Sequence record: SRR20825010_3076
Length of the DNA: 62,781 nucleotides
Direction: 5' to 3' (one strand)
The notes beneath the pieces are model-generated. The model was not told where the DNA came from and ran no database searches. It saw only the letters and a program-made list of their open reading frames with translations. Of the stretch, positions 15,337 to 57,926 are shown in pieces; positions within the stretch are counted from its first letter, which is position 1; every line of letters starts with the position of its first letter. The translations under genes and the position numbers were made by a program.

Positions 15337-15367
15337 AGGTCGGATTACGCTTTTACTAACCCGACCT
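15337..15367 (+). other. Intergenic stem-loop between mshA and mshC
   Basis: AGGTCGG-A-TTA ... TAA-C-CCGACCT inverted repeat with no U-tract. Confidence 0.5.
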
Positions 15368-15407
15368 GCGTGCTGCGCTGGGGATACGGGCAATCCGGGA
15401 GTGGGGC

Positions 15408-15854: not shown

Positions 15855-16354
15855 TGTCTGACCAGCGCGGTGCCACCCTGGTGGAGCTGGTGATGACCAT
15901 TGTCATTATCAGTGTGGCCATTGCCGGAGTGGTGGGAGCGTTCGCCCTTATCAGTGGTCGCAGCGCTGATCCCTTGAACCAGACCCGGGCCGTAGAGCTT
16001 GCACAGCTGTACATGGATGAAATCATTACCCGGAAGTACGACGACTCAGTGCCTCAGGGAGGTATGCCGAAATATTCAGGCGGCTGCAATATAGGAGCAG
16101 AACCTGGTGAAGAACGCGGTACCTACGATGACGTCGATGACTACAACGACTTGACGGGTAGCCCGCCGAAAAACGCCCGCGATAACGATGGTGAAGTTCT
16201 TGATGGCTATGCGGGCTTTTCAGTTTCAGTTTCGGTGGTTTGTGCTGGTGCTGATGTGGGACTCCCCGGTTCTGAGGCCAAAAGGGTCGATCTAACGGTT
16301 CTTGCTCCGGGAGGGCAATCGTTTTCATTTTCGGCCTACAGGGCAAATTTCTGA
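15842..16354 (+). CDS. mshD: MSHA minor pilin MshD
   Basis: RG|ATLVEL, RA.ELAQ.YMDEI, YDDVDDY, terminal YRANF. Confidence 0.88.
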   Translation: MSAVMSDQRGATLVELVMTIVIISVAIAGVVGAFALISGRSADPLNQTRAVELAQLYMDEIITRKYDDSVPQGGMPKYSGGCNIGAEPGEERGTYDDVDDYNDLTGSPPKNARDNDGEVLDGYAGFSVSVSVVCAGADVGLPGSEAKRVDLTVLAPGGQSFSFSAYRANF

Positions 16355-17133: not shown

Positions 17134-17536
17134 CAGATCTCGACATCATCAGGCTGGTGCAGGCCTGCCCGTTGCCCTCTTTGTTATCACCGTGCTGTCG
17201 CTGCTGGTTTTGGGCATGTCTCAGATGCAGCAGATCAGCGGTGAGTCAGTCAGCCTGCAGATTCAGTCACAGCGGGCATTCTTTGCGGCTGAGAGCGGTG
17301 CGCAGGTCGCGGTTCGTGACGTGCTCGAGGCCTCCGACTGCGCTGGGCTGAACAGCCCACTGGTTTTTAATGATGCAGTCGGACTGCAAAGCTGTCGTTC
17401 CCGCATGACCTGCGAGTCGGTAACGGCCAATATTGGCGGTTCCGGTGGCAACACGGTGTATACCATAACCAGTACCGGGCAATGCGGTGCTGGGCCGGAT
17501 GAATCAACCAGGGTGGTAGAGGTGCGTGTACGATGA
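17123..17536 (+). CDS. mshP: MSHA protein MshP (PilX-like)
   Basis: GAGLPVALFVI, RAFFAAESG motif. Confidence 0.85.
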   Translation: MFPDRSRHHQAGAGLPVALFVITVLSLLVLGMSQMQQISGESVSLQIQSQRAFFAAESGAQVAVRDVLEASDCAGLNSPLVFNDAVGLQSCRSRMTCESVTANIGGSGGNTVYTITSTGQCGAGPDESTRVVEVRVR

Positions 17537-20500: not shown

Positions 20501-21306
20501 CACTGACAATTGAAGCCCTGTCGATGGATGGAGCTCGGACCCGGAACTACACCGAGCCCGGATTCCAGAAGCTGGTCAAGGAGGACGTGATTCGAACTTT
20601 TCCCGTCGAAGACAGCTCGGCAGTGAACCGTGAGAATGAGAGCATTGACGTCAGTACCAACGTATCCGCAGGGGAGCTGTTGGTGGCCGAGCCCGAGTCC
20701 GGTCTTCTGCAGTTAAACTATGCCGCTGGTGATACCGTTCGTTACCTGAAGGTCCCTGAAGCGAGGGTTGCCCCCCTTACGCCGCCACCTTCCCCACCCG
20801 GCCTTCCCGGCCCATCGAATCATCTTCTGACCTATGGTGTGACTGATATCACCGACGCTGATGGCGTCAGTGCCGACGATGCGCCGTATAAATTTTCACC
20901 GGCAGCGACTTTCGACATCCGTTTTGGCCGGTTGTCCATGGACAACGTGTATGGTCCTGAAAATGTGCAAGAGCTACGGATGCCTTTCAGGCTGGAATAC
21001 TGGAATGGCTCGCGGTACGTAACCAATACGGTCGATAACTGCACCAGCTGGACGACAGCCACCATTTTGAGCGCTGCCAATCACCACACACTCGTTTCGG
21101 ATTCGGGCACGTTTACCGCGGGTGAGGCCGGACCACTACGGCTTCAGGCGACCGGCTCCCAAGGTACAGATCGACTGACATGGACAGTTGACGAATGGCT
21201 CCGGGAGGATTCAGACGAGGATGGTAATGCCGAAGCGCCCTCAGCCCTGGCCACCTTCGGCGTCTACCGTGGCCACGACCGCGTTATCTATTGGCAGGAA
21301 AAATAG
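17533..21306 (+). CDS. mshQ: MshQ large tip adhesin with L-type lectin-like domain and DUF6701-like C-terminus
   Basis: Signal peptide; GADGLAVVLSD...GGWLGIGLDEFGNFSN lectin-like segment; GRFYPDRF, RFGRL and terminal ATFGVYRGHDRVIYWQE. Confidence 0.88.
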   Translation: MMSVLRELPRIVVIVLCSMIAPLAYAAQCSDVFSQPDGVNDNLQASGNTLDLTGVNWANGTWPPSGVPQLGGEEYVSSQPGPSYELVLQPGAQKVIFVNGNLTIDRGTRLNESGSPDQLLIVVRGSLSIAGGGNSANNRVVINGLIYAADSASIGNNVYIDGAVAAGGAISTGNRDVEFSDSDVNTDLLEGLCDSGAAGPVDLSANGESVGPVSIGVDDSVSFSADVAGCPPVPTLSTQDWRETWLVDGQQVAQSVSGSSSCSRSPLIRTDTFDTEGQYAVLLTVEYRNCFLGFFCGGWQEHGGDTITMDVSDDDALTCFTDDYLDGSLSADDWVTSVSRGNFTPSIVNGRLRMTEARSNQATAATIQREIPGAENLVIIEFDYYAYGGNGADGLAVVLSDARVTPQPGSYGGSLGYAQRSNGDPGFAGGWLGIGLDEFGNFSNSNEGRVGGAGFRRDAVAVRGAEQGGYRYLRGTGSVSPGIDQPGNNPSAHRYRVTVDSRVSGEALVSVERDVSGTGDNYQILVESFNALNEPGQPAVPENFLLSLTGSTGGSNNIHELDGFQLCALKLNPVGAQVDHFEILHDGVALTCQPETVTIRACATVGCNDDELFTDPVEATLEPTEGWQGGNPVTIVGGTGEFVLQNTVAGEVVLNVVGSQPSTRPQSVTLCRRGSSPLSSENCKLEFFESGLVFDIPDLTSHKPSGPVQVQAVRQDDASQACVPAFENTEREVHFWSTYVDPGPGGRPVDRPLSVNNTDISGDESAPTPLNLSFGDDGIAEIEVSYPDAGRLDLGARYDGSPANNDEGLSMPGSDAFVSTPAGFCVSSAGACAAGDSSCDVFVRADEPFDLSITAVGWQSDTDTDLCDANPVTPNFRMLTVPIASELVAPSGGVNGTVSPSSYSHSRSLDATETVSVKMSEVGVFRFTATPVTGGYLGKTVPKGTSEPTGRFYPDRFNVTIDEGALGAHCGAPTPFNYTGQDISWLLAPTLTIEALSMDGARTRNYTEPGFQKLVKEDVIRTFPVEDSSAVNRENESIDVSTNVSAGELLVAEPESGLLQLNYAAGDTVRYLKVPEARVAPLTPPPSPPGLPGPSNHLLTYGVTDITDADGVSADDAPYKFSPAATFDIRFGRLSMDNVYGPENVQELRMPFRLEYWNGSRYVTNTVDNCTSWTTATILSAANHHTLVSDSGTFTAGEAGPLRLQATGSQGTDRLTWTVDEWLREDSDEDGNAEAPSALATFGVYRGHDRVIYWQEK

Positions 21307-37948: not shown

Positions 37949-38353
37949 ATGGCAGACGTTATCAAAGTGCCGGTCTCCTTCGGCGAAGTGCTGGACAAGA
38001 TCACCATTCTGGAGATCAAGTCTGAACGCATAGCAGACGCGGAAAAGGTCAAAAATGTTCGGCTCGAGCTGGACGAACTGAGCGCCACCTGGAACGAGGC
38101 CGTTCAGGATCAAGCAGCCATCGCAGACCTGCGCAGGCAGCTTAAGGAAGTGAACGAGGCGCTCTGGGAAATCGAAGACGACATTCGTGATCAGGAAGCT
38201 GCTCAGGATTTCGGCGCAACGTTTATTGAACTGGCTCGTGCCGTCTATGTCACCAACGACAAGCGCGCCGCCATCAAGAAGGACGTGAACCTGGCCCTGG
38301 GGTCACGATTTGTGGAAGAAAAGTCCTATCAGGATTACACCGTCCGCAAGTAA
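37949..38353 (+). CDS. Conserved hypothetical protein (DUF6165-like)
   Basis: PVSFGEVLDKITILEIK, N..LWEIEDDIR, ELARAVY.TND.R, EEKSY. Confidence 0.75.
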   Translation: MADVIKVPVSFGEVLDKITILEIKSERIADAEKVKNVRLELDELSATWNEAVQDQAAIADLRRQLKEVNEALWEIEDDIRDQEAAQDFGATFIELARAVYVTNDKRAAIKKDVNLALGSRFVEEKSYQDYTVRK

Positions 38354-40386: not shown

Positions 40387-41076
40387 ATGACCACCGTCAA
40401 ACTCGAAGAAGAGCTTCACTCCAATACCCGTAGAACCCGGATTACCTATCGGGGGCTGGTGGATGGCCGGGTGGCGGCGATCAAGTGTTACCGTAAGCCG
40501 CTTTTCGGGTTGGTTCATTGGATTCGTGCGTTGCGCCGTGGCAAGAAAATTCGGCGCGTGGGTGGGCCGGTACCGCCAACTGTTTATGCTGGTTGGATCG
40601 CCGAATTGACATGTTTTGGTTTCGCTACCGAGTTCCTCACGGGTTACCGCCCAATGAGAGAGCTGTTGAGAGAGACGGACGACCGCGACGAGCAGATTCA
40701 GCTTTTAAAGCGCTTGGGAGAGTGCATTGCCGATCTTCATAAAAAGGGAATCGAACAACCTGATTGTAATCTGACTAACTTTTTAATGGGCGCTGATGGC
40801 CAGATCAGGATGGTAGACGAAGACGATGTGCGTGTCCATCGTGCGGGGTTGCGTGAGGGCGTGGCTTTGTCGAATCTTTCGAATCTAGGAGCAAGGCTGC
40901 CGCCGGGGGAGTTGCCTCTCGTGTTGCACCAGGCATACGTTGAGGCCTTCGGTGATGCCGGTAGCGGAATAAGGCTTGATGTTAAAGAGTTTGAGAACCA
41001 GGTATCTGAGAAGAAACAGCAATTACGCAAAAAGCGAACTGCGAGAGATGCAGCGCCCGACCGAGAGTACGATTGA
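40387..41076 (+). CDS. LPS kinase-like protein (Kdo/WaaP/InaA fold)
   Basis: AAIKCY, FATEFL, LH..GI.QPDCNLTNF, MVDED. Confidence 0.7.
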   Translation: MTTVKLEEELHSNTRRTRITYRGLVDGRVAAIKCYRKPLFGLVHWIRALRRGKKIRRVGGPVPPTVYAGWIAELTCFGFATEFLTGYRPMRELLRETDDRDEQIQLLKRLGECIADLHKKGIEQPDCNLTNFLMGADGQIRMVDEDDVRVHRAGLREGVALSNLSNLGARLPPGELPLVLHQAYVEAFGDAGSGIRLDVKEFENQVSEKKQQLRKKRTARDAAPDREYD

Positions 41077-41852
41077 TGGTGGATATCCCGGTATTTCTGG
41101 TCTCCATGAAGGGAGACCACGCTCGACGCGAACGAATGTCTGCAGCATTCCCAACCCTCTATCCTACGATGAGGTTAGTAGACGCGGTTGACGGGCGTCT
41201 GCTGAGCGCACAGGACTATTTTCGATATGCTTCGAGTGCGTTCGTTAACCATAGGCGACTTCTTGCGCCTGCTGAAGTCGGTTGCAGTCTCAGCCACATT
41301 GAGGCACTAGAGCAATTTCTGAGTTCTGGTGCCGAGCGCGCCGTAATTCTGGAGGATGACGTGCTGGGTGATGACGCAGGGCTGTCAAAGGCTCTTGAAG
41401 ACGTTCGTCTAATCCCGAACGAGTCAGTCATCATTCTAGGTGGTCAGGAGGGAATGCCTTCCCGCAAATATATATTTGGCAAGCCGATTGTTGAAAACCG
41501 TATTTTCGCCTTGCCTCATTACTCCACCCATCACATATTTCGGACATGCTGTTACGGAGTGACCCGATTCAGCGCCGACAGTATTGTGACCTCACAAAAA
41601 GCCTCTTTAAAATTGGCGGATGCGTGGTGGGCTTTCAGTGGAAAAAATGGAGACCTGACCATCCACTTCAGTCATCAATTGGCCCATCCGGTAGACCGTA
41701 GCGACAGCCACATTGAAAATAGCAGAAGTGACCTGAGCTCTCAGGTGCAAAGAGGTCTTTTAAGTTTTTTGGTCAAGCGGTTTCAACGGCTCAAGCGAAG
41801 ATTCGGCGCGGTCTTATGCAAATCGCGTGGCTATCAGAGAGTTGTTCGTTGA
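41076..41852 (+). CDS. Glycosyltransferase family 25
   Basis: FLVSM....RR, DAVDG, EVGCSLSH, ILEDD. Confidence 0.9.
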   Translation: MVDIPVFLVSMKGDHARRERMSAAFPTLYPTMRLVDAVDGRLLSAQDYFRYASSAFVNHRRLLAPAEVGCSLSHIEALEQFLSSGAERAVILEDDVLGDDAGLSKALEDVRLIPNESVIILGGQEGMPSRKYIFGKPIVENRIFALPHYSTHHIFRTCCYGVTRFSADSIVTSQKASLKLADAWWAFSGKNGDLTIHFSHQLAHPVDRSDSHIENSRSDLSSQVQRGLLSFLVKRFQRLKRRFGAVLCKSRGYQRVVR

Positions 41853-43075
41853 AGATCCGAATGGGGCTCGGCGGCGGAGTCTAAGCTCAACAATGAAATC
41901 ATCGATAGAACGAACAGATTGATCGTCACAGGGTGATTAAAGGGTACGTCCGTCAGAGATGCGACCGCGTACATAAACGTAATTCCCAATACGCTCCCTA
42001 ACACCAGTTTGCTGCGCCGAAAGTACTTGAACGCCAATAGGGGCGGTGTTAGCAAAAGGCCCAGAAGAGCCAGAAGCCCGGGAATTCCTTTTTTTACGAG
42101 AGTATCGAGGTACTGATTGTGGTAATGGTAGGGCGCGTAATTCGCAGCTGCCTGGTTAACGAGGCCTTGGTCGGCGAGGTGTTGGAACGACGACTTATGG
42201 CTTTCCCCCAGCCCGGTCAGAGGCTCAAGCGTCGACATTTCTAGTGCCGCTTTCCAAAACTGCAGCCTAAGCCCAATGGAGCCGGTTTCATCGCCTGCTT
42301 CAATAAGAGCCATGTCAGACACTGTGGCGTCGATTCGCTTTTCGAGAATTTGACCACCAATTGCAACGGCGACGATTATAGTCATTCCAATGCCCGCAAC
42401 AGCAAGCTTATTCGAGCGTGCATGCCTGAAGAGCAGGTAGGTTATTGTCACGCCCATTATTAAGGTGGCTGGCAATACGACGCCTCTGGTCCCCGTCAAC
42501 GCAAGCGCAATAAACAGTAGAAGAGTCGTTGTCCAAGCAATCAGTTTCAGTTTTAGTTCGGCGGATGTAACAGCCAGGAATAACGAACTGATAAGTACGG
42601 TTGCTAACCCAGTGGCGAAAGGTATTGGGTTGTAGTTCAAGTGCGCACGTGCGACATCGTTGATGAAGGATTGGTAAAAACACACGGCGATGAATCCCGC
42701 GCCGGAGAGCAGTATGACGGTTCGCCAGCTTTTGAGGGTAAGAACCATGCAAACTGACATTCCGGAATAGACCGACAGGGCTGAAACTGTTCTCAGTTCA
42801 GAGATATTGCCATCTTTAAGCAAATAGCCAGCGCCACACACGATCGCGGTTGACGCGACAACCAATGAAAAGGGGGTCTTAGCTCTCTTTTGTTCTCTAT
42901 GGGTTGAGCGCCAACATTTTGAAGCAATGAAGTACCCCAACAGAACCAATATAATAGCGGGTACGTATTTGTCGCCTTCAGGAATCCACCACATTACAGT
43001 CATGGCAAACGCAACCGGTATGAATAAGGTAAGGTCATTCCAGTTAGGCGTTGCAAACAAAGGGGGACTGGGCAT
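41834..43075 (-). CDS. waaL: O-antigen ligase family protein
   Basis: Polytopic membrane protein; NPIPF, LTGTRG, SIGLRLQFW, P.TGLG, HYHNQYL. Confidence 0.85.
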   Translation of the reverse strand: MPSPPLFATPNWNDLTLFIPVAFAMTVMWWIPEGDKYVPAIILVLLGYFIASKCWRSTHREQKRAKTPFSLVVASTAIVCGAGYLLKDGNISELRTVSALSVYSGMSVCMVLTLKSWRTVILLSGAGFIAVCFYQSFINDVARAHLNYNPIPFATGLATVLISSLFLAVTSAELKLKLIAWTTTLLLFIALALTGTRGVVLPATLIMGVTITYLLFRHARSNKLAVAGIGMTIIVAVAIGGQILEKRIDATVSDMALIEAGDETGSIGLRLQFWKAALEMSTLEPLTGLGESHKSSFQHLADQGLVNQAAANYAPYHYHNQYLDTLVKKGIPGLLALLGLLLTPPLLAFKYFRRSKLVLGSVLGITFMYAVASLTDVPFNHPVTINLFVLSMISLLSLDSAAEPHSDLQRTTL

Positions 43076-43246
43076 TGGAATCTGGTTCTGGGTCTTGTCG
43101 ATTGGAAGAATGTTGGCAGGGCAAAGTTAAGTTTTAGTGTAACAGATTTGTTGGGTTAGAAGCAGTCGCCCAAGCGGGACTTTCAGCCCAGTCTGAATCC
43201 ATCAGTAAGTTTAGATACAATCAGCGTTTTAACTCCTGACGGTCCA

Positions 43247-44146
43247 ATGGGTATGCCCAAAGTTTCGATCATTATCCCGACCCACAATCGCCCTGACATG
43301 CTCGCAAAGGCCATCGAGTCGGCGGTCGACCAGTCGCTTTCCGATCTGGAGGTAATTGTGGTTGATGATGGCAGCAGCGTGCCAGTTGACTACGAAGGCG
43401 AGGATGAGCGGGTTCGTGTGCATCGCCATTCAATCGCCCAGGGTGTATCTGCAGCCCGCAATGCTGGGCTGTCTCTGGCGAATGGGGAGTACATCGCTTT
43501 TCTGGACGATGATGACACCTTGCTTCCGGATTATGCCGGCAAAATGCTCGAGTTATTCGAGCAATACGGTGACGAAATCGACTTTGCCTGGCCGGCTCTG
43601 CGCGTGTTGGATGTTTCCTCGGGTGACACCTCGGAGGCCCAGCAGCATTCTTGCCTTATCCGTCGTCACCACAAGGCCGATGAAGTCGCGTATGCCGCGA
43701 CAGCATACACCCGTACGACGGGCATGATGTTCAGAGCAGAATCAATACGCCGAATTGGAGGTTTTGACGAATCCCTGACGGTTTCCGAAGATCGGGAGCT
43801 GGTTTTTCGAATGTTAAGTGAGGGGAGTGGTTGTGGTTCCGTTCAGGCTCCATTGGTGAACTTTTTCATTCACTCTGGCCCGCGCCTGAGTACCAGCGAT
43901 AATCTACTCAAGCAGGCGAAGTGCGACACCCTGATTGCGGACCGGCATGCAGGTTTCATTGCCCAACATCCCAAGTTGGCCTCCCGTTACCTGAATTTAC
44001 TCGCGCGCAGGCAAAAAGATGCGGGTCTGATTGCTGACTACCGCTCGACGCTATTGCGGCTTCTGCGAATCAGTCCTTTGGATGTCAGAGCTCTTAAGAG
44101 GCTTATGCTATCGCTTTTCTTGTCGTCGAAAGCTGGCGGATCTTGA
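43247..44146 (+). CDS. Glycosyltransferase family 2
   Basis: VSIIIPTHNR, VVDDGS, AARNAG, FLDDDD, GGFDE, ED. Confidence 0.93.
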   Translation: MGMPKVSIIIPTHNRPDMLAKAIESAVDQSLSDLEVIVVDDGSSVPVDYEGEDERVRVHRHSIAQGVSAARNAGLSLANGEYIAFLDDDDTLLPDYAGKMLELFEQYGDEIDFAWPALRVLDVSSGDTSEAQQHSCLIRRHHKADEVAYAATAYTRTTGMMFRAESIRRIGGFDESLTVSEDRELVFRMLSEGSGCGSVQAPLVNFFIHSGPRLSTSDNLLKQAKCDTLIADRHAGFIAQHPKLASRYLNLLARRQKDAGLIADYRSTLLRLLRISPLDVRALKRLMLSLFLSSKAGGS

Positions 44147-44151: not shown

Positions 44152-44817
44152 TTAGTTGGCTGTTTCATTCGGTGGCGCATTTCGATAATCAGGAAGTGCA
44201 GGTAGACCCTCGATATGAACAACCCCAAGCTGCGCAGGAATGCGGTCAATGCCTGCCGCGATCGCCATCGCTAAACGATGATTGCCTTTCCTGCCGAAGT
44301 AGGGCTTGCCGTCTGGACCAATGTTGACGAGTATCCCTCCCTCTTCCCGGAAGTTCCCAGGGATCAGCTCATCTCTGGGGCTCAGGCGCCCTGCTTGTCG
44401 CACGCTTTCGTATAGGGCATCAAGCTGCCGGTACCGGAGTTTAACGTCTTCAAGTGTCCTGAGGCGGTCTACCTTTCCGTGCTTCCGTATCTGATCCATC
44501 ATTGCGTCGTAAATGCCCGTTTCTTCCCACGACAACCCGCCCCGCCAGTGGGCTACACACGCCTTTATGGCGACGGTTTGATCGACGCGCCCCAGCCCCC
44601 CGGTGGGCCAGGAACGGATGATTTGTCCGCTTTGTTTTGAGCTTCCCGCCTTGACGGCAAATTCAAGCTCGGAAATCGGCACCCACAGTTGTTCGGCAAA
44701 CCTCGGCGCGTCTTCCCCATATAATGCCTTGTTCTGTCGATCCGTTTGCCACGCTCGGAGGCGGCTGTTCCAGTTCCTTCGTAGCTGCTCGAATCTGGAT
44801 TTTTCGGTAATACCCAT
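44152..44817 (-). CDS. Hypothetical protein with ParB/Srx-like motif
   Basis: C-terminal ILVNIGPDG...KGNHRLAMAIAAGIDRIP resembles the ParB/sulfiredoxin GxHR..A...G...IP motif. Confidence 0.6.
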   Translation of the reverse strand: MGITEKSRFEQLRRNWNSRLRAWQTDRQNKALYGEDAPRFAEQLWVPISELEFAVKAGSSKQSGQIIRSWPTGGLGRVDQTVAIKACVAHWRGGLSWEETGIYDAMMDQIRKHGKVDRLRTLEDVKLRYRQLDALYESVRQAGRLSPRDELIPGNFREEGGILVNIGPDGKPYFGRKGNHRLAMAIAAGIDRIPAQLGVVHIEGLPALPDYRNAPPNETAN

Positions 44818-44922: not shown

Positions 44923-47900
44923 ATGGGAACAACGGAGCGAGCACACCAGACACGCCTCATCATCCTCGGCGCTGGCAAGCCGTTCAGCGGCGAACAGCAT
45001 AGTGTGCTCCGGGGCACAACCGGTCGCAGGCGGGTACTGGACTGGGTATTGCACTCCATGCGCGCAGTAGAGCCCGACGTTCATTTCGTGGGCGGATACC
45101 AGCTGGATGAAATTGCCGAGCGTTATCCCGAGCTTCACTATTCGGTGAACCCTCATTGGCAATCCACCGGTGCGGCGGCGTCGTTGCTGGAAGCGCCACT
45201 GAATGATCGCGTCGTTCACTACGTGTCCTATTCCGACGTGCTGTTTCGGGATTCCGCGGTGCAATCTTTATCCTCCAGTGAGGCGGATATAGCCGTTTTG
45301 GTGGACAGCAATTGGCGTCACCGGTTTGAGGGGCGCTCTGAAGAGGATTTACAGCGATGTGAAAAAGTGAACGTGCACGGCGGCCGGATCACCCGTTTGG
45401 GGCGGGATATCCTTCCCGAACTGGCCGATGCCGAATTCGTTGGTCTGGTTCGGCTGCAGCCCAAGGTTGCGGGTTTTCTGGCGGGGCAGTCGGATTTTCC
45501 GGAAGCCATACGCAAGGGCAGCCTCACCCAGCTTCTTGAGCTGTTGCGGGTTCGTGGGTTCAGTGTGGCTGCGGTGGATGTGGCCGGTGGATGGGCAGAA
45601 CTGAACGAGCCGAACGATCTCAGTCGGTTTATCCTGGGCACCAAGGCGCAGACGCTCCATCGTTTGCAGGGCGTGGTTACGAGAAGTCGTATTGAAGACC
45701 AGGTCAGCTTTACGGTTGCCGAATGGCAGGACTTGGACACAGAAGTACTCGCCCGGATCGGGGCGCGCCTATCGGAAACGGAAAAACTGGTTGTCCGCAG
45801 CAGTGCCTTGTCAGAGGACGGGTTCGGGGTATCCAACGCTGGCGCTTACACCAGTGTTCTCAATGTCAGTCGCCAGAGTGAAGGCGAGCTTAGAGCCGCC
45901 ATTGAGAAGGTCATTGCCTCCTATCCCGATGGCCACCCCGACAACCAGGTTCTGGTGCAGCCGATGCTGGAACAGGTGATTGCCAGTGGTGTGGCGTTCA
46001 CCAAAACCCTGTCCTCGGGGGCTCCGTATTATGTCGTGAATTACGACGATACTACGAATAGCACCGAGTCCATCACCAGCGGTGCCAGCCGGGATCACAA
46101 AACCCTCTTTGTTCATCGGGATGCTCCGGAGAAGCTGGTACGGGTGCCGGAGAACCTGGCGGGACTGATGCCCGCGCTGAGGGAAGTCGAGGACCTGTTG
46201 GATTTCGATTCTCTCGATATGGAATTCGCTATCACTGAGGGCGGCCTGATCCATATCCTTCAGGTGCGCCCGATTGCGGTTCAGCACGAGCTCACTCAGA
46301 GTGATGCGGCAGAGAGCTTGCTGACGAACGCCGTGGATCGATTTCGGCAGTGGCAGGCTCCAGCGCCATTTGTTGTCGGCAAGCGTGCCTGTTTCGGTGT
46401 GATGCCGGACTGGAACCCGGCTGAAATCATCGGCACCCGGCCGGGACGACTGGCATCCAGCCTGTATCGCTATCTGATCATGGACGACGTGTGGGCAGCC
46501 CAGAGAGCGGAATACGGTTATCGGGACGTTCGCCCCCAGCCGTTGCTCAGGATGTTTGCCGGGCACCCTTACGTGGATATTCGCGCCAGCTTCAACTCTT
46601 TCATTCCGCAATCCCTGGATGACGGCTTGGCAGGGCGGCTGGTGGACTTCTACATGGAGTGGTTACGTCGCCACCCGCATCTACACGACAAAGTTGAGTT
46701 TGATGTGGTGCCTACCTGCTACGCGCTGGATTTTGAGCGCTGGCGGGAACGTTTGATCCACGAGGGTGGTTTTAATGCCGATGAGGCAGATCGGCTTGGC
46801 GTGGGATTGAAAACCATCACTGCCTGCGCCATCGCTCGAACCGACGCGGATCTGCAAGTAATTGACCGCTTCGAAGAGCGGCTGGCGTGTTTCCGGAACA
46901 CTGATGCCGCCAGTCTGGACGATGCACTGTCGCTGCTTGAAGAGTGTCGGCGATACGGAACCCTGGCGTTTGCCCATCTTGCCCGCAGTGCCTTTGTTGC
47001 GATCACATTGCTTCGGTCGGCCGTCGAAAAAGGTGTGTTGTCCCAGGGCGCCATGGATGCGTTCCTCAACTCTATCCGCACGGTTTCCCACCGGTTTACC
47101 GACGATGCTGCGAAGGTGGCTCGTCAAGAATTGTCCATGGCCGCCTTCACCCAACAATATCGGCACTTGCGGCCAGGTACCTACGACATAACCTCGCCCT
47201 GTTATGGCGATAACCCTGAGCATTTCCTGGTTCCGGTGATTGAGCGTTCAGCGTCGGAGTTGCACGCCGACTCGGGTTCCCATATCGCTCTGGACGCGTG
47301 GGAAAATGAGAGGCAGACGTTCGCGCAGGCGGTTTCAGATGCCGGTTTGCCCGGTGACATTGAGCAGCTTGAGCGTTTTATGCGTAATGCCATCGAGGGC
47401 CGTGAGTACGCCAAGTTTGTGTTTACCCGGCATCTTTCTCTGGCCCTGAATTGCCTGGCGGGTTACGGAGAGCGTCATGGGGTAACGCGGGAGCAGATGG
47501 CGTGTATTTCCGTTGAAGCCCTGTCCGCGTTGAGGTCAGGAACCGTGGCGGTGGCCGATGAGGCCTCCTGGCTGGCAGACCAGGCTACCGAAGGTTATGA
47601 GGCCAGCCGGGCAGCGGCTATGGTTGAATTACCCCCCTTGCTGCTGTCAGAAAGTGACTTTTACGCCTTCCTGTACACTGATAGCCACGCGAATTTCGTG
47701 GGTGCCGGGAAGATCTCCGCCGAGTGCGTCGATCTGCAAAAACGAGCCACTGACGAGCGGAGTAACCTGTCCGGCAAAATTGCCATGATTCCCCAGGCCG
47801 ACCCCGGTTATGACTGGCTGTTTGGCCATGGCATTGCCGGGTTGATTACCATGTATGGCGGTGCCAATTCCCACATGGCCATACGGGCCGCAGAGTTTGG

Positions 47901-48006
47901 ACTACCTGCCGCCATTGGCGTAGGCGAGGGGAAGTACGAGGCATTGGCGAGGGCAACCGTGTTGGAACTGGACCCCGTCAACAAGCGAATTGAGGTCATC
48001 CGTTAA
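44923..48006 (+). CDS. L-glutamine kinase-like (Cj1418-type, PEP-utilising fold) fused to an N-terminal nucleotidyltransferase-like domain
   Basis: ATP-grasp VVRSSA.SED...NAGAY.S, VLVQPM, DMEFA...LQVRP; central FGVMPDWNPAEIIG; phosphohistidine domain ADPGYDWLF...GGANSHMAIRAAE; N-terminal ~230 aa with IILGAG, YSDVLF, EFVGL, W.E. Confidence 0.8.
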   Translation: MGTTERAHQTRLIILGAGKPFSGEQHSVLRGTTGRRRVLDWVLHSMRAVEPDVHFVGGYQLDEIAERYPELHYSVNPHWQSTGAAASLLEAPLNDRVVHYVSYSDVLFRDSAVQSLSSSEADIAVLVDSNWRHRFEGRSEEDLQRCEKVNVHGGRITRLGRDILPELADAEFVGLVRLQPKVAGFLAGQSDFPEAIRKGSLTQLLELLRVRGFSVAAVDVAGGWAELNEPNDLSRFILGTKAQTLHRLQGVVTRSRIEDQVSFTVAEWQDLDTEVLARIGARLSETEKLVVRSSALSEDGFGVSNAGAYTSVLNVSRQSEGELRAAIEKVIASYPDGHPDNQVLVQPMLEQVIASGVAFTKTLSSGAPYYVVNYDDTTNSTESITSGASRDHKTLFVHRDAPEKLVRVPENLAGLMPALREVEDLLDFDSLDMEFAITEGGLIHILQVRPIAVQHELTQSDAAESLLTNAVDRFRQWQAPAPFVVGKRACFGVMPDWNPAEIIGTRPGRLASSLYRYLIMDDVWAAQRAEYGYRDVRPQPLLRMFAGHPYVDIRASFNSFIPQSLDDGLAGRLVDFYMEWLRRHPHLHDKVEFDVVPTCYALDFERWRERLIHEGGFNADEADRLGVGLKTITACAIARTDADLQVIDRFEERLACFRNTDAASLDDALSLLEECRRYGTLAFAHLARSAFVAITLLRSAVEKGVLSQGAMDAFLNSIRTVSHRFTDDAAKVARQELSMAAFTQQYRHLRPGTYDITSPCYGDNPEHFLVPVIERSASELHADSGSHIALDAWENERQTFAQAVSDAGLPGDIEQLERFMRNAIEGREYAKFVFTRHLSLALNCLAGYGERHGVTREQMACISVEALSALRSGTVAVADEASWLADQATEGYEASRAAAMVELPPLLLSESDFYAFLYTDSHANFVGAGKISAECVDLQKRATDERSNLSGKIAMIPQADPGYDWLFGHGIAGLITMYGGANSHMAIRAAEFGLPAAIGVGEGKYEALARATVLELDPVNKRIEVIR

Positions 48007-48007
48007 G

Positions 48008-48655
48008 ATGCGCATTGGAGTCAGTCAGCGCGTGGAAGTGGTTGCGTCTTATGGTGAGCACCGGGATTGCCTGGATCAGCAATGGTTCCGGTTTCTTGAG
48101 GCACTGGGGTTCATGCCCGTGCCCATTCCCAACTCGCTGTCCAATCTCAACGAATGGCTGGCATCGACGGGAATTGAGGGGCTGATCCTGTCGGGTGGCA
48201 ATGATCTCACTCACCTGCCTGATGCCATCAACACGTCGGCAGAGCGAGATGAGACGGAACGAACCCTGCTTTCGCTTGCACGCGAGCGGGGGTGGCCAGT
48301 TATCGGAGTCTGTCGGGGACTGCAGATGATGAACGTCTGGCTGGGCGGGCAGCTTACCCCGGTCTCCGGTCATACCGCCGTGCGACACGCGGTGACACCA
48401 ACTGAACAGACAAATAGCTGGTTTCGCCCCTACCAGGACGTCAACAGTTTCCATAACTGGGGAATTTCCCCGGAGGGTCTGGTGGCGGAACTCATCCCCC
48501 AGTTGCTGAGCCCGGAAGGCGATATCGAGGCGTATGTGCATCGTAGCCTGCCTTGGGCTGGCATCATGTGGCACCCGGAGCGAGAGGCGCCGTTCACCGA
48601 GCGCGACAAACAACTTTTCAACTGTATTTTCAGAGGTACCCCATGCAAACACTGA
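48008..48655 (+). CDS. Class I glutamine amidotransferase / peptidase C26, gamma-glutamyl-CDP-amidate hydrolase-like (Cj1417-type)
   Basis: IGVSQRV...EHRDCLDQQW, LILSGGND, GVCRG (catalytic Cys), VNSFH, WHPER (His-Glu). Confidence 0.8.
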   Translation: MRIGVSQRVEVVASYGEHRDCLDQQWFRFLEALGFMPVPIPNSLSNLNEWLASTGIEGLILSGGNDLTHLPDAINTSAERDETERTLLSLARERGWPVIGVCRGLQMMNVWLGGQLTPVSGHTAVRHAVTPTEQTNSWFRPYQDVNSFHNWGISPEGLVAELIPQLLSPEGDIEAYVHRSLPWAGIMWHPEREAPFTERDKQLFNCIFRGTPCKH

Positions 48656-49425
48656 TACTGGCCGCAGGGCAGGGCACCCGACTTCGCCCCTACACCAACG
48701 ACCGCCCCAAATGCATGGTGGCGCTGGCGGGCAAGCCTCTGCTTCATCGTCAGATGGCGGCGATGGCAGCTTGCGGAGTGAGCAATGGCATTACCGTCAT
48801 CGGCGGCTATCGGTCGGATGACCTGGACACTCTAGGCGGTGATCTCGTCCTCAATCCCGAGTACGCAACCACCAACATGGTCCGCACGCTCTTTTGCGCG
48901 CGCGAGAAGATGAAGCCCGGCGAGGATCTGCTGATCAGTTACGGGGATATCGTCTATGAGCCTACGGTTCTGAAAATCGTTCTGGACTGCGATGCGCCGG
49001 TTTGTCTGGCTGCGGACCGTAAGTGGAAGCGCCTGTGGCAATTAAGAATGGAGGAGCCGTTGGATGACGCGGAAACCTTCGTTATGAACGAATCCGGTTT
49101 TGTGACTGAGCTTGGCAAGAAGCCCAGTGATTACAGCCAGGTCCAGGCTCAATACATGGGGCTGATCAAGATCCGGGGCGATCAGGTGCAGGCGTTTCTC
49201 GATGTTTTCGATAGACTGGACCGTAGCGCCACCTACGATGGCAAGGACTTCGATAACATGTACATGACGAGCTTTATCCAGCACCTGATTGACACCGGCT
49301 GGCCGGTGAAGGCCTGCCTGGTGGACAACGGTTGGCTGGAAGTGGATACCGCGGATGAGCTGGAAGCCTATTCCTCGATGGCGGAAAAAGGTGAGTTGGC
49401 ATCCTACTGCGCGTTATCGAACTGA
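48643..49425 (+). CDS. LicC-family cytidylyltransferase, CTP:phosphoglutamine cytidylyltransferase-like (Cj1416-type)
   Basis: LILAAGQGTRL.P.T.DRPKCMV, NPEY..TNMV.TL, YGDIVY, QYMGL, WLEVDT. Confidence 0.82.
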   Translation: MQTLILAAGQGTRLRPYTNDRPKCMVALAGKPLLHRQMAAMAACGVSNGITVIGGYRSDDLDTLGGDLVLNPEYATTNMVRTLFCAREKMKPGEDLLISYGDIVYEPTVLKIVLDCDAPVCLAADRKWKRLWQLRMEEPLDDAETFVMNESGFVTELGKKPSDYSQVQAQYMGLIKIRGDQVQAFLDVFDRLDRSATYDGKDFDNMYMTSFIQHLIDTGWPVKACLVDNGWLEVDTADELEAYSSMAEKGELASYCALSN

Positions 49426-50336
49426 GTTCTCAGGTCATATAGTCGGTCGACAAGGGGCTGGTGATCCTTGAGCATGCCGCGGATTTGGTCCGTGTCTCCG
49501 ATGCCGACATTGCGGATGGAGTAGGAAGGATTGAACGGCGCTGACGGCAGTTGCGCTTCCGGGAAATCCAGGAAGTCACAGACTCTCCGGGCTTCCGTTT
49601 TGTGGTCTTTCACGAAGCGTTCAAAGCTCACTGCAAGCATATAACTTTCGCCCAACTGCGCCTGAAGCGCCATCAGGCTTTCCATTTTTGCGGCGATGCC
49701 TTTGAGCACATAGGCAATGTCGTCGTTCTCGCTATCATTGAACGCGGGGTCGGATTTACGCTTGCCGATCTTGCCCTGGCGGACGACTTCGGCAAACTGG
49801 TCCACTGGATCTCGGTGAACCACGATCAGTTTGAAGGGGGTAAAGACAGCGGGCCAGGTCCCTTCGTGTTTGCCGACCCAGATCGGCTGGTTCCAGACGA
49901 TGGCCTTTTCCCTAGCAGCGTACGCCTGGCCGACGGCGTGCATCCAATCGTTCCATATCCGGCTATCCGAGGGCGCACCGCCTTTGGCTAAATGTTTCCG
50001 ATAGCGGCCAAGGTATTCAAGCTTCAACTGGTTGTGTCTCACCTGCTCCTTTGGAGCAAGCTTGGCCTGGTCTGCGCCTCGCGCTTTTTTAAGCTGTGCT
50101 GCAGGCAGTTTGCCCATGGCGGTTTCGAACCACATCATCCTGGCAAGCCATTTTGCCTTGAAGGGTGAGTCCGCCTCCAGAAGGCTGCCGATTCGTCCAC
50201 TCCGTTTGAAGTCGGTAAATTCACCCCGGGGCACGACGCAGTCCGGGTGTCCCTTGAGGTAATCCACTACAGCACCGGAACCGGACCAATAAATGCCCGC
50301 TACCAGAATATTGAGAGGTTGGGCGTGCTCAGTCAT
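49404..50336 (-). CDS. Sulfotransferase-fold (P-loop-like) protein
   Basis: N-terminal VAGIYWSGSGAV.D.L loop, IVVHRDP.D, V.FE.FV.D......VCDFL. Confidence 0.65.
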   Translation of the reverse strand: MTEHAQPLNILVAGIYWSGSGAVVDYLKGHPDCVVPRGEFTDFKRSGRIGSLLEADSPFKAKWLARMMWFETAMGKLPAAQLKKARGADQAKLAPKEQVRHNQLKLEYLGRYRKHLAKGGAPSDSRIWNDWMHAVGQAYAAREKAIVWNQPIWVGKHEGTWPAVFTPFKLIVVHRDPVDQFAEVVRQGKIGKRKSDPAFNDSENDDIAYVLKGIAAKMESLMALQAQLGESYMLAVSFERFVKDHKTEARRVCDFLDFPEAQLPSAPFNPSYSIRNVGIGDTDQIRGMLKDHQPLVDRLYDLRTQFDNAQ

Positions 50337-51510
50337 GTTGGCTTTGCTTTTCCGGGGATTCGAGAAAGTCGCTCACCACCACCCGGCTGCGGAAAGGCGC
50401 AAGCCACTCCGGTTTCACGGTGACCGGTAGGCGGTTAACCACGGTTGCGAGCCCGCTTGCCAGACCATCCACGGTGCGTGGCGTCAGGAAATCCTCCAAT
50501 TCGCCACGGAACACATCCCGTACGCCACCGCGGCTCTCTACAGCCATGATCGGCGTGTTGCAGGCCAGGGCCTCGGTCAATACGATGCCCAGGCCCTCAT
50601 ATTCTGAGGCCAGCACAAACAGTTCCGCCTGCTTCATCCAGGGGTAGGGGTTTCTGCGTTTGCCCGCGAAGAAGACGCGGTCAGCGATGCCTAGGGCCTT
50701 CGCTTTCTCCTCCAAATCGTTTTTCAACGGACCCTCGCCTACAATGACCAGCTTGTGAGCGATTCCTGATTGCTTGTAGGCTTCCAGCAGCAAGGCGTGG
50801 CCTTTCTGAGGCACGAGCCGAGCGACATTGAGGATATAGGGCTCCGCTGGAATGTCCGGGTCGGCCTCTTGCGCCAACGCGTTAATCTGCTCCACCGGGC
50901 AGGGGTTGGTGATCACCCGCTGGCTTTTCGGTTCAATCTCCCCCTTTTTGAACGCCTCCTGAGCGGAGTCCAGCACACCAGAGGAAACGCAAGCCAGGTG
51001 TCGGTTATTGAAGACCAGTTGCCATTCCAGCTTTTTCTGCCACAGAGGGCGATCATAATGAATAACGTTTTCGAGCACGTACACATTGCGGTCATCCCGG
51101 AACGACCAGAAATACTTGAAGGTACCCAGGCCTCGGAAAACAATGCGGTCGAAACGCCCGAAGCGCTTTTCCAGGCCGCGAATGTGTCTCTTCAGCAGCC
51201 ACCCGCTTAGCCAGCCAACCCACATAAAGTGGGATTTCGGCAACAGTACACCCAGTAGAAGGCGGGATAACAGGAAAACTGGAATACCGATAACCGATTT
51301 CATCAACGCCTGGAACTGATCGAAGTGATGCAGGTGAACGGCAGAATTGGCAGGGCTGAGATCATTGGGGCGATTGCGGCAGGACAGCAGGTGACTCTCG
51401 TGGCCCTCGTCCGCAAAGGCATCCGCCAGGTTAACGGCCACCCGTTCCATGCCGCCCATTTTCAGGCTGTGGATCACAACCAGGGTTCTCATGCTTCCTT
51501 GCTCGGTCAT
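50329..51510 (-). CDS. Glycosyltransferase family 4
   Basis: GGMERV, VARL..QKG, NPYPWM, S.YEGLG.VL.EALA. Confidence 0.92.
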   Translation of the reverse strand: MTEQGSMRTLVVIHSLKMGGMERVAVNLADAFADEGHESHLLSCRNRPNDLSPANSAVHLHHFDQFQALMKSVIGIPVFLLSRLLLGVLLPKSHFMWVGWLSGWLLKRHIRGLEKRFGRFDRIVFRGLGTFKYFWSFRDDRNVYVLENVIHYDRPLWQKKLEWQLVFNNRHLACVSSGVLDSAQEAFKKGEIEPKSQRVITNPCPVEQINALAQEADPDIPAEPYILNVARLVPQKGHALLLEAYKQSGIAHKLVIVGEGPLKNDLEEKAKALGIADRVFFAGKRRNPYPWMKQAELFVLASEYEGLGIVLTEALACNTPIMAVESRGGVRDVFRGELEDFLTPRTVDGLASGLATVVNRLPVTVKPEWLAPFRSRVVVSDFLESPEKQSQHD

Positions 51511-53448: not shown

Positions 53449-54117
53449 TTACAGCCTCTGTGAGGCTTCCCAGCTGGTGCTTCGGTCGCCGGTTTCCCAG
53501 CCAATTCTCAGGTAAAAGCGCCGGATACGGCGGCTAATGTATCGCTTTCGCCAAGCGGAGAGGGTGGCCAATTTGTCGGGGATGGTGGGGGCGCCGAGCC
53601 CGTCAACCAGAAACAGCTCCGGTTGTCCGCCCCTGTCGGCGATCACCAAGTTGTGGGGCAGCAGGTTCCGGGTGAGGATTCCGGTTTCGAGTAACCAGTT
53701 GCAGAAGCGGTCTGCAGCGTCCCGAATCGGTTGATCAAACCCCCGGTGTTTCAGGTAGTGTTCGAGCGTTTCGCCCGGTAGGCCGTGGTCATCGAAGAGG
53801 AGCTCACTCATGTTTGCCAGGCCGAGCGAGGTTTCCACCGCGCCATGAAATTGCGGCAGGTGCGCCCAGACCAGTTCGTCGTGGCCATCGTTGATCAGCG
53901 CCCGGATGGCTTGCTGTTGATGCGCCCGGAGTTCCTGGCGGTTGTCATCAATCCTCGCTCTGCCGAGCATTTTCTTTGGCCAGGACTGGCGCTGGAAACG
54001 CACTTCGATGTTTTCAGGCCGCAGTACTTTGAGACACAATGCCGGATCATCCGGATGCCGGTAGCAGTGTCGGTTGTAGCCAGAGGCGAATGGCTCAATG
54101 CCTGACAGGTCAATCAT
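53449..54117 (-). CDS. YrbL-family kinase-like protein
   Basis: PFASG..R.CY.HP....CLKV, G.VET.LG, LVDGLG. Confidence 0.78.
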   Translation of the reverse strand: MIDLSGIEPFASGYNRHCYRHPDDPALCLKVLRPENIEVRFQRQSWPKKMLGRARIDDNRQELRAHQQQAIRALINDGHDELVWAHLPQFHGAVETSLGLANMSELLFDDHGLPGETLEHYLKHRGFDQPIRDAADRFCNWLLETGILTRNLLPHNLVIADRGGQPELFLVDGLGAPTIPDKLATLSAWRKRYISRRIRRFYLRIGWETGDRSTSWEASQRL

Positions 54118-55870: not shown

Positions 55871-56982
55871 TGGTGCGCAGGCCTCCGCGCAAGAAGGTTC
55901 TCATAGACCTTCAGCGTAGTTTCGGTCTGTGCTTCCAGTTGGAATCGCCACGGTATCTCTATCTCAGGTCGGGGATTGTCGAGGAGGGCGAGCGCGGTCT
56001 GGGCAAACGCTTCTATATTGTCTGGCGGTACCAATCCGTCGGAGAAACAAGCGCGCAGTGTTTCGGCTGCGCCACCTCGGTCAAAGGCGGCCACCGGTGT
56101 GCCGGAGGCCAGGGCTTCGGTAACGGTGCGGCCGAAAGGTTCTGGTTTCGTGGACATGTGGCAGACCACGTCCGCCAGAAGGTAGAGGGTGGTCATATCG
56201 TTGCGCTGGCCGAGGAAACTCACCTTGTCGGTCAGGTTCAGGCGGGCACGTTCCTTTTCCAGCTCCTCCAGAAACTGCTCCTTGCCAGGTTCAGCGCCGC
56301 CGACAATGATGCCGTGGCAGTCCGGTCGTTTTTGCACCAGCTGCGCCATCATGGCCAGGAAGTCCAGTTGGCCTTTCCAGCGGGAAATGCGCCCGGGCAT
56401 CATGATGATCTTTTTCTGGGCCAATTGTGGGTACTGCCGGAACCAGCGGTCCAGCCATTGTGGGCTGAGCTCCCGTTGTCGAAAAGCACTCACGTCCACG
56501 CCCCGTTGGATGACGGTCAGTTTTTCTTCCGGCACCGGGTATTTGTTCAGCACATAATCCCGAACACAACCGGACACGGCGATGATGTGATCAGCCCGGG
56601 TCATGATGGCGCTGTAGGGGGTCACGGAATACATGCCATGAAAGGTTGAGACGACGGCCGGGCGCTGGTTGGCTGGAATGGTCTTCAGAGCCAGGAAGAT
56701 GATCCAGGCGGGCATACGGGAGCGGACATGTATGATGTCCGGTTTCAGCTCCAGAAGCAGCTTGCGCATGGGCAGGATTTGTCCGAATGACGCCGGGTTC
56801 TTCCGGTGTATTGGCATGAAAATGTGTTCCGAGCCTTGCCCACGAAGCTGCTCCGCCATGGGGCCGCCTTTCGAAACCACATAGGACTCGTGCCCACGTT
56901 TCACCAGGTCGGCGGCGAACTCCACGGTGCCTCGTTCCACCCCGCCACTGTATAGCGCGGGTAACGCCTGCAGAATCCTCAA
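55867..56982 (-). CDS. Glycosyltransferase family 4
   Basis: LP.L..GGVERGT, H.RSR.PAW, GRISRWKGQ, PEPFGR...EA. Confidence 0.92.
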   Translation of the reverse strand: MRILQALPALYSGGVERGTVEFAADLVKRGHESYVVSKGGPMAEQLRGQGSEHIFMPIHRKNPASFGQILPMRKLLLELKPDIIHVRSRMPAWIIFLALKTIPANQRPAVVSTFHGMYSVTPYSAIMTRADHIIAVSGCVRDYVLNKYPVPEEKLTVIQRGVDVSAFRQRELSPQWLDRWFRQYPQLAQKKIIMMPGRISRWKGQLDFLAMMAQLVQKRPDCHGIIVGGAEPGKEQFLEELEKERARLNLTDKVSFLGQRNDMTTLYLLADVVCHMSTKPEPFGRTVTEALASGTPVAAFDRGGAAETLRACFSDGLVPPDNIEAFAQTALALLDNPRPEIEIPWRFQLEAQTETTLKVYENLLARRPAHQ

Positions 56983-57926
56983 CGTTTGCCTCCCCTTAAA
57001 AAGTGTTCAATCAGCCACCTTGCGGCCCTATCAGCCTCCCAAAGCTCCTGCGATCCGCGCAATTTTCCAGCCATAACCGAGGCATGGTCACTCCAGTGCG
57101 CAACGTACCCTTTCTCTACCAGGCTGGCCATGCCCCGGGCGACCCGGCTGTTATTCTTGGGCGCGAGCTCAAACAGACCCGTAGGCACGCCGGAGGTGGC
57201 AGCTTCGCAGGCCATGGAGGCGCTGTCTGGTGTGACCCACACCGCGCGGGAGGCGGCGAGTTGGTGGGGAAGCCAGCTGGCGTGCGTTCGCTTGGAATCC
57301 ACGACCGTGACCTTCGGGCCTGCCAGGTCGTTCAGTTGCATCAACAGGTTTTCGGGCGTACGGCGAGAGCCGCTGATCGTCCAGCGCCATTCCGGGTAGC
57401 GACCCATTAGCTGGGATAACTGTCCGAGAATAACGTCGTCATCCCAGTCGAAATGGGGTGAGGGGCCGCCTACGAGAACAAGGCCTTCGGGTTTGTCGGT
57501 AATTCTGGCCAGGGGCGTGATTGCGTTTATGACACCTTCGGTGGCAAGGACATGTCTGGCTGGGGGGACCTTATCGTGTTCTGGAATGATGGCCGCATCG
57601 ACCCAGCTGAGAGGGAAGCCCGGTTTCATTAAAACCACGGTTTTTACCTTTCGGAGCCGCCGCAGGGATAACAACAGGCGATGAGTACCGCTGCCGGCTG
57701 CGATAATCAGGTTTGGTCTTCCCAGGGCTTTATCCATGGCCGGCGCAACGCCAAGCAGCGCCCGCCACAAGGGCGGGGGCGCTTCGGTCGCATCAATTTC
57801 ACTCACGCTGGCGCCAGCCAGCACCCGAAGCCGGTTGCCCAACCCTTTCAGCTGGTTGTGATGGCCAGGCTTATTATCGGTCAGTAGCCAGACAACCGGG
57901 GCGGGTGAACCCGTGTGGGAGCGCAT
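56979..57926 (-). CDS. ELM1/GtrOC1-family putative glycosyltransferase
   Basis: D.KPGH.NQ..GL, PEHD, L.GGPS, SRRTP, VT.DS.SM..EA. Confidence 0.8.
   Translation of the reverse strand: MRSHTGSPAPVVWLLTDNKPGHHNQLKGLGNRLRVLAGASVSEIDATEAPPPLWRALLGVAPAMDKALGRPNLIIAAGSGTHRLLLSLRRLRKVKTVVLMKPGFPLSWVDAAIIPEHDKVPPARHVLATEGVINAITPLARITDKPEGLVLVGGPSPHFDWDDDVILGQLSQLMGRYPEWRWTISGSRRTPENLLMQLNDLAGPKVTVVDSKRTHASWLPHQLAASRAVWVTPDSASMACEAATSGVPTGLFELAPKNNSRVARGMASLVEKGYVAHWSDHASVMAGKLRGSQELWEADRAARWLIEHFLRGGKR

Follow-up and report, generated by a model that had tools for sequence, protein, structure and literature searches.

Among the described routes to phosphoramidate groups on bacterial surface glycans is that of the Campylobacter jejuni capsule, where the donor for modification with O-methyl phosphoramidate (MeOPN) is made from glutamine via phosphoglutamine and CDP-glutamine to CDP-amidate (PMC11800397, PMC6429109, bioRxiv 10.64898/2026.02.12.704994); the genes assigned to this system encode the L-glutamine kinase Cj1418, the cytidylyltransferase Cj1416, the hydrolase Cj1417, the 3'-kinase Cj1415 and the transferases Cj1421 and Cj1422 (PMC11800397, PMC6429109). 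Unmethylated phosphoramide has been described on a core mannose of the lipopolysaccharide (LPS) of Xanthomonas campestris 8004 (PMC8042644) and as a minor LPS variant in Shewanella sp. MR-4 (PMC3210612; PMC3907429 is also cited for these two bacteria). There, the group is known from chemistry only, and our literature search found no publication assigning genes to it. Here we analyze a stretch of 62,781 nt from the record SRR20825010_3076 (hereinafter the window), which is assigned to Marinobacter because the closest relatives of its kinase come from Marinobacter sp. and M. algicola (93% identity). Within its LPS core locus, three genes that resemble those for the first three Campylobacter steps converge on a gene for a sulfotransferase-fold protein (hereinafter SULF), and the four together constitute an optional cassette:

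44923..48006, + strand: fused protein of 1027 aa, a degenerate LicC-like domain (aa about 1-230) followed by a Cj1418-type kinase of the phosphoenolpyruvate (PEP) synthase fold (aa 232-1027), proposed L-glutamine kinase
44923..45615, + strand: the N-terminal nucleotidyltransferase-like domain of this kinase, without the Arg of GxGTRL and the Lys of PK
48008..48655, + strand: hydrolase of the class I glutamine amidotransferase fold (Cj1417-like; Peptidase_C26; ATG start), proposed gamma-glutamyl-CDP-amidate hydrolase
48643..49425, + strand: LicC-type cytidylyltransferase (Cj1416-like; NTP_transf_3; ATG start), proposed CTP:phosphoglutamine cytidylyltransferase
49404..50336, - strand: SULF, sulfotransferase-fold protein of 310 aa (Sulfotransfer_3, E 1.8e-11), proposed CDP-amidate:glycan phosphoramidyl transferase

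The sequence-only reading of this window had recognized three coupled genes at 44923-49425, and these are indeed present and intact, with the motifs, the catalytic triad and the profile matches confirmed; the hydrolase gene starts 1 base past the stop of the kinase gene and is overlapped by the cytidylyltransferase gene by 13 nt. Kinase residues 232-1026 score 888.5 bits against the NCBIfam model PRK05849 (cut-off 501), to which Cj1418 presumably belongs; the motif MPDWNPAEIIG starts at residue 494 and GGANSHMAIRA at residue 979, and His984 is conserved in 68 of the 69 aligned homologs. No sequence match of the kinase was found in the PDB, and three homologs of 58-59% identity carry the JGI name 'glutamine kinase'. 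The Cys-His-Glu triad of the hydrolase is conserved in 61/61 homologs, and the GxGTRL and PK motifs of the cytidylyltransferase, whose closest solved relative is LicC (1jyk, E 1.5e-10; an assignment at the family level), are invariant or nearly so across 26 sequences. The expected profile matches thus came out far above the cut-off for the kinase and at the level of the LicC-type family for the cytidylyltransferase; the hydrolase has the gamma-glutamyl-CDP-amidate hydrolase family NF045546 as its best NCBIfam match (E 9e-35), at 120.5 bits, under the cut-off of 250. The three-gene set is conserved across Pseudomonadota, Bacillota and one haloarchaeon, its relatives are widespread (13/401 genomes of an evenly drawn sample), and such relatives have been reported in Borg elements (10.1101/2024.11.05.622173). 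The earlier assignment of the trio to the route from glutamine to CDP-amidate is supported by these family matches and conserved catalytic residues, and we consider it very probable that the three enzymes jointly carry out this conversion.

Could the fused lineage nevertheless make something else, by acting on another amide or amine substrate, by transferring phosphoglutamyl intact or by producing an N-substituted amidate, and might its N-terminal domain then serve as a second nucleotidyltransferase that is active? This 230-aa domain, overlooked by the sequence-only reading, shares homology with the cytidylyltransferase encoded in the same cassette (hhalign 99.5%, E 4e-23) and about as well conserved as the kinase core (0.63 vs 0.67-0.75). 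The sub-threshold score of the hydrolase, the addition of a formyltransferase in many related loci and the use of other amines by related PPDK-fold kinases such as TalE (PMC6482885) would all be compatible with a different product. On the other side stand the kinase score far above the family cut-off, the preservation of the three-gene set from Pseudomonadota to Bacillota and a haloarchaeon, the lack of any formyltransferase in the window and the state of the N-terminal domain itself, which reads LGAGKPF where LAAGQGTRL is expected and has lost the CTP-binding Arg and Lys. We regard a different product as improbable. The domain is probably non-catalytic and perhaps a nucleotide sensor or a docking unit; a complex prediction for it with the cytidylyltransferase, with a score of 0.00, spoke neither for nor against this.

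The cassette shares with the MeOPN system the three families, the order kinase-hydrolase-cytidylyltransferase, the catalytic His and the Cys-His-Glu triad. Unlike that system, it has the extra LicC-like domain, lies in an LPS core locus rather than a capsule locus, comes with a candidate transferase of the sulfotransferase fold, and is accompanied in the window by neither a Cj1415-like gene nor a methyltransferase. Lacking a 3'-kinase and a methyltransferase, it is not a member of the MeOPN pathway proper, but it appears to work like its first three steps. The absence of a methyltransferase gene, asserted earlier, holds for all the window open reading frames (ORFs) scanned with Pfam (23 + 30, part of all ORFs, to which a six-frame profile search was added). 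With regard to Cj1419 and Cj1420, which had been taken for established methyltransferases, the account in PMC11800397 assigns them no function and reports knockouts that left the capsule unchanged.

What, then, would transfer the phosphoramidate group? The sequence-only reading saw no transferase at the locus and counted three genes in the cassette, but the likely transferase lies immediately next to the trio. The SULF gene, convergent to the trio, overlaps a GT4 glycosyltransferase gene by 8 nt and is the terminal gene of an lpxL-GT2-GT4 run (GT, glycosyltransferase family). Its gain and loss can be followed across 191 Marinobacter genomes (labels G###; labels L### denote loci in other comparisons), related strains among which are not independent. 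The site is bounded as follows:

50329..51510, - strand: GT4 glycosyltransferase, conserved right-hand flank of the cassette site, outside the cassette; 77-87% identity in four cassette-free relatives
44152..44817, - strand: conserved hypothetical protein of 221 aa, left-hand flank of the site, outside the cassette; no Pfam family

The kinase is present in 17 of these genomes, SULF in 19, and both in 14. All 14 kinases with at least 66% identity are accompanied by SULF, the remaining three being in different loci; the two genes are adjacent in 13 of the 14 genomes and lie on separate contig ends in G091. Three genomes (G071, G103, G069) have the GT4 gene abutting the homolog of 44152-44817, with all four cassette genes absent together. 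SULF is accordingly a member of the cassette, being gained and lost with the trio. The nearest genome, G001, does not have the kinase and is uninformative about the site because unrelated genes lie left of lpxL there. SULF occurs without the kinase in five genomes (G019, G046, G179, G146 and G173). G019 had been considered as a case of SULF without a donor, but a single deletion of about 7.1 kb took the trio along with the last SULF codons, so that this genome is neither a counter-example nor a case of independent decay.

In two of the other four genomes, the donor genes at the same slot are of a different kind:

L077:10658-14398 (genome G046): phosphonate cassette (cytidylyltransferase-PEP mutase, phosphonopyruvate decarboxylase, reductase) in a Marinobacter LPS core locus
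L079:6440-7753 (genome G179): phosphonate cassette in a Marinobacter LPS core locus, the contig ending after the PEP mutase fusion

PEP mutase was found in only these 2/191 genomes, fused in both to a cytidylyltransferase and directly beside a SULF of 50-52% identity. In G046, the fusion is followed by phosphonopyruvate decarboxylase (Ppd) and an iron alcohol dehydrogenase that comes close to TIGR03405, under the cut-off, and is a homolog of phosphonoacetaldehyde reductase. The presence of this cassette in the core loci of G046 and G179 predicts phosphonate-decorated LPS.

The fold of SULF is plainly that of a sulfotransferase: the model has high predicted confidence (pLDDT 95.9), the top Foldseek and VIA-align matches are all sulfotransferases, and the superpositions with TPST and OLS sulfotransferases give Z 17-17.6 and rmsd 3.3-3.9 A over 230-238 residues, at 12-17% identity to sulfotransferases that use 3'-phosphoadenosine 5'-phosphosulfate (PAPS). 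With these enzymes (Sulfotransfer_3; TPST, CurM, OLS sulfotransferase, heparan 3-OST), SULF also shares a loop like the 5'-phosphosulfate-binding (PSB) loop and the Arg and Asp of RxxxDxxxS. Sulfotransferases are defined by the Lys/Arg of the PSB loop and the Ser of RxxxDxxxS (PMC11625862), and it is these two residues that differ. In the SULF motifs, GIYWSGS and RDPVDQFAE, Trp17 takes the PSB Lys position (aligned to 3-OST) and Glu183 the Ser position of the 3'-phosphate-binding (3'-PB) motif; of 101 family members, 8 have Lys/Arg at the first position, and at the second, 80 have Asp/Glu and one has Ser. The control sulfotransferases L069, L052, CurM and 3-OST retain the 3'-PB Ser. Judged by both defining residues, SULF is outside the PAPS-dependent sulfotransferases, and an acidic residue at the site of the 3'-phosphate would fit a donor with a free 3'-OH.

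Two alternatives bear on this point. Under the first, the pathway would not be shortened: the housekeeping adenosine 5'-phosphosulfate (APS) kinase CysC would make 3'-phospho-CDP-amidate, which SULF would use as a PAPS mimic. One housekeeping-type CysC is indeed present in 11/14 kinase+SULF genomes, and the 3'-PB Arg175 is invariant in the SULF family, both compatible with a 3'-phosphorylated donor. However, no true APS kinase was found in the other three, G016 and G094 (both 99% complete) and G091 (83%), or in G046 (100% complete, with PEP mutase and SULF), so PAPS or a 3'-phosphorylated donor is unlikely in at least some hosts; furthermore, Glu/Asp at the Ser position would be expected to repel a 3'-phosphate. 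We consider this route very improbable.

Under the second, the trio would supply CDP-amidate, but the P-N group would be transferred by the product of another gene, SULF being an ordinary or unrelated enzyme (a PAPS sulfotransferase, a kinase or a glycosyltransferase). Apart from the sulfotransferase fold itself, this would be favored by two Marinobacter genomes that have SULF without a kinase or PEP mutase: G146, with a core-locus SULF of 46% identity that has Arg at the PSB position, and G173, where a SULF of 24% identity comes after an aldolase, CMP-synthetase and HAD gene set. Yet such an aldolase set occurs without SULF in G071, and SULF has both sulfotransferase-defining residues changed, lacks a Walker A GK[ST] motif, and occurs in hosts in which no APS kinase was found (G016, G094, G046). 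The flanking genes, moreover, persist where the cassette is absent, neither SULF nor any other scanned ORF of the window matches a Glyphos_transf or LicD domain, and no TagF or LicD match was found in these loci. We regard this second alternative as improbable, and that SULF transfers phosphoramidate from CDP-amidate is, in our estimate, fairly likely.

As a separate observation, a group of genes for an HMGL-like aldolase (about 537 aa), one or more CMP-sugar synthetases, a HAD phosphatase and a 420-aa protein of no known role recurs in Marinobacter core and O-antigen loci (L007-L011, L013, L017, L018, L078, L080, L137) and probably represents an unassigned CMP-ulosonic acid pathway.

The lack of a 3'-kinase is best appreciated by comparison with more distant loci. 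The search for kinase relatives gave 155, the best 80 of which yielded 75 loci: 25 with unfused kinases, 44 with fused ones and 6 that contig ends interrupt. Of the unfused loci, 24/25 have an APS-kinase-like gene, vs 0/44 of the fused ones. Cj1415 is itself APS-kinase-like, a point in favor of the CysC route above. In the window, no such gene was found, the sole match to the APS-kinase profile in the six-frame search being the UvrA P-loop (E 1.6e-7). Nor do the 14 kinase+SULF genomes, the relatives of the window's organism in which the genome-wide absence was tested, encode a second, Cj1415-like copy of the kind that G045 does have. Thus, the claim that a Cj1415-type 3'-kinase is missing has stood, and its absence throughout the fused-kinase lineage is supported. 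Among the 44 fused loci, 17 have only SULF (13 Marinobacter core loci, Natronospira twice, Legionella and Sulfitobacter), 21 only a TagF-like CDP-glycerol phosphotransferase, one both and five neither, these five with a contig edge 1.5-2.9 kb downstream; Pfam confirmed representatives of the scored loci. In the kinase tree, SULF-linked loci appear at no fewer than three places among the TagF-linked ones. An evenly drawn sample of 401 genomes contributed 14 loci, in which the sole fused locus (L135) has a TagF-like gene and no APS kinase, and the three plasmid loci examined out of 11 matches (L142-L144, two near-identical) are all fused, with a TagF-like gene and without an APS kinase.

SULF is also found beyond these loci. 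Its family comprises 311 representatives at E <= 1e-10; the broad searches detected it in 4/401 genomes of the phylum, 2/391 of the order and none of the plasmids. In a tree of 29 rows, a 21-row clade (98/97) unites kinase-linked and Ppm-linked members with the donor-less L078, L080 and L095; outside it are L101, L102, L122, L096 and L067, with long branches and unsure placements. The distant relatives L096, L103 and L094 sit in phosphonate clusters. Both proteins, the kinase as CCG94149.1 and SULF as CCG94152.1 (MARHY0660), are encoded by a type strain available in culture, Marinobacter nauticus ATCC 49840.

Besides the donor-less G146 and G173, the CysC of most kinase+SULF genomes and the hydrolase score, several facts weigh against the scheme that emerges. 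No phosphorus-donor genes are in view for the distant SULF relatives L101, L102, L122 and L095; L094 carries two LicD genes, so that SULF is not the sole transferase candidate there; and some kinase- or Ppm-linked SULF domains (L064, L068, L103) retain Ser/Thr at the 3'-PB position. All fused kinases group in a single clade, so the 0/44 count does not stand for 44 independent losses, and the loci scored with the TagF and APS-kinase profiles are also those from which these profiles were derived. A Fisher test is given no weight here, since it overstates where related strains are not independent. Furthermore, an APS-kinase-like gene is present in 8/13 unfused loci of the even sample, which makes the fused/unfused contrast weaker than the first set suggests. 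Finally, no Marinobacter LPS structure was found in the literature.

Which glycan would receive the group? The LPS locus spans 38450-60318 and, by Pfam and NCBIfam, includes GT9, KdkA (above its cut-off), a WaaL-type ligase, several GT2, GT4 and GT25 glycosyltransferases, two LpxL-family acyltransferases and WaaA, in agreement with the core neighborhood recognized earlier. In 13/13 Marinobacter loci of this layout, SULF comes after the same GT2-GT4 core genes, and in G104 the slot is taken by a pyruvyltransferase-family gene and its partner, another glycan-decoration pair. From this position, the LPS core is the likely acceptor. The same chemistry and transferase could instead serve lipid A, the first O-antigen sugars or another surface glycan, given that the donor lineage occurs elsewhere in O-antigen, capsule and flagellin-glycosylation loci and that WaaL and GT25 to the left of the cassette vary among near-identical strains while the cassette stays constant. 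Against such an acceptor, however, stand the constant GT2-GT4 context, the 8-nt overlap with the GT4 gene in the window and the occupation of the slot in G104, and we deem it unlikely, if worth keeping in mind.

Several observations concern the surroundings of the cassette. Its GC content, 0.56-0.58, is the same as that of the flanks, so composition does not mark it out; promoter and terminator scans gave results at chance level; and contigs from four RNA libraries span most of it, which, as these may contain DNA, is no proof of transcription. To the left, the window has a variable block at 40596-43252 (a second Kdo-kinase-like gene, GT25 and WaaL; GC about 0.50), which is swapped for other sequence in near-identical strains and has loose ends at 40596 and 43252. 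The family of the left-hand flanking protein is present in 39/191 Marinobacter genomes, mostly in core loci, and 14 of the 39 have the kinase. This protein was considered as a transferase and rejected, 25 of its 39 genomes being without the kinase; it has only a weak ParB-like structural similarity (TM about 0.3), and its single-sequence model, at pLDDT 43, is unusable. Three further genes, ELM1-family (56979-57926, - strand), YrbL-family (53449-54117, - strand) and DUF6165 (37949-38353, + strand), recur in the Marinobacter core locus, with no LPS role identified. Positions 4379-21306 of the window hold an ordinary MSHA-type pilus locus (secretin, ATPase, platform protein, pilins and a DUF6701 protein).

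Some of the more distant loci appear to hold variants. In Halomonas/Vreelandella (L051, L054, L062), the fused cassette comes with giant glycosyltransferases that have a TagF-like domain, with flagellin genes beside L054 and L062, which suggests phosphoramidate on flagellin glycans. A formyltransferase takes the place of a methyltransferase in many donor loci (L012, L014, L015, L016, L020, L021, L024-L028, L030, L031, L060, L074, L133), including fused ones (L035, L041, L042, L051, L054, L058, L073, L135), often with, or fused to, a 190-aa gene of no known role; this hints at N-formyl phosphoramidate or another variant. In L129 and L132, kinase-family genes have neither a hydrolase nor a cytidylyltransferase nearby.

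The scheme that we favor from these findings would run as follows. The kinase would phosphorylate the amide nitrogen of glutamine through phospho-His984, the cytidylyltransferase would use CTP to form CDP-glutamine, and the hydrolase would release glutamate and CDP-amidate, three steps strongly suggested by the families. With the corresponding genes missing, neither 3'-phosphorylation nor methylation is expected. In the fourth step, proposed from comparative genomics, CDP-amidate would occupy the former PAPS site of SULF, where Glu183 suits a 3'-OH better than a 3'-phosphate, and SULF would move PO2-NH2, a group of sulfuryl-like shape, onto a sugar hydroxyl, with CMP leaving. The product would be sugar-O-PO2-NH2, with the acceptor, from gene position, the nascent core on the cytoplasmic side. 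The shortened pathway to unmethylated LPS phosphoramide proposed in the sequence-only reading is thereby retained in its donor route and in the absence of a 3'-kinase, with an LPS target plausible from position, and corrected with respect to the transferase. Our confidence is highest for the donor route, lower for the core as acceptor and slightly lower again for SULF as transferase, these judgments not being independent; for the chain as a whole, decoration of LPS, most likely its core, with unmethylated phosphoramidate via SULF, we see about an even chance.

The predicted end product is the same as that in X. campestris 8004 and Shewanella MR-4. The logic of the last step has precedents in TagF/TarF, LicD, Clostridioides difficile FtaD and Pnt/PntC, where cytidylyl activation likewise comes first and a sugar hydroxyl then receives a substituted phosphoryl group (PMC6697681, bioRxiv 10.64898/2026.02.12.704994). 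The proposed use of a CDP donor with CMP release is shared with TagF, LicD and FtaD, and TagF-like genes fill the role of SULF in other fused loci; unlike TagF, LicD and FtaD, SULF has its matches among sulfotransferase families and folds. For phosphonates, too, nucleotidyl activation is known, with LicD-like enzymes or glycosyltransferases suggested as neighbors (PMC6697681); the main text of the PntC paper nowhere uses the word 'sulfotransferase'. We found no paper linking a sulfotransferase or its fold to the transfer of phosphoramidate or phosphonate, in a search that took in main texts and few subscription journals, and none on the fused, 3'-kinase-free kinase lineage. Thus, the donor chemistry and LPS phosphoramide are known, whereas for this lineage and for a phosphoryl-group transferase of the sulfotransferase fold we found no prior report.

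The hypothesis has implications beyond Marinobacter. SULF could belong to a branch of the sulfotransferase superfamily that is widespread and mis-annotated and in which the donor was switched from PAPS to cytidylyl-activated phosphorus groups, a proposition that we see as evenly poised. If it is true, this branch would in some hosts use CDP-amidate to transfer phosphoramidate and in others a CMP adduct to transfer hydroxyethylphosphonate, with close orthologs (50% identity) switching between P-N and P-C donors; this would be a new activity for the sulfotransferase fold and would supply the missing transferase for phosphoramidate and phosphonate tailoring of glycans, implying that some proteins annotated 'sulfotransferase' move phosphorus groups. 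SULF, small, soluble and well modeled, is a convenient candidate, considering that for Campylobacter, knowledge of the transfer step comes mainly from knockouts. The cassette would then be a minimal set of genes for placing unmethylated phosphoramidate on LPS, and the comparison suggests that the 3'-kinase of Campylobacter is a lineage-specific addition, CDP-amidate itself being able to serve as the donor.

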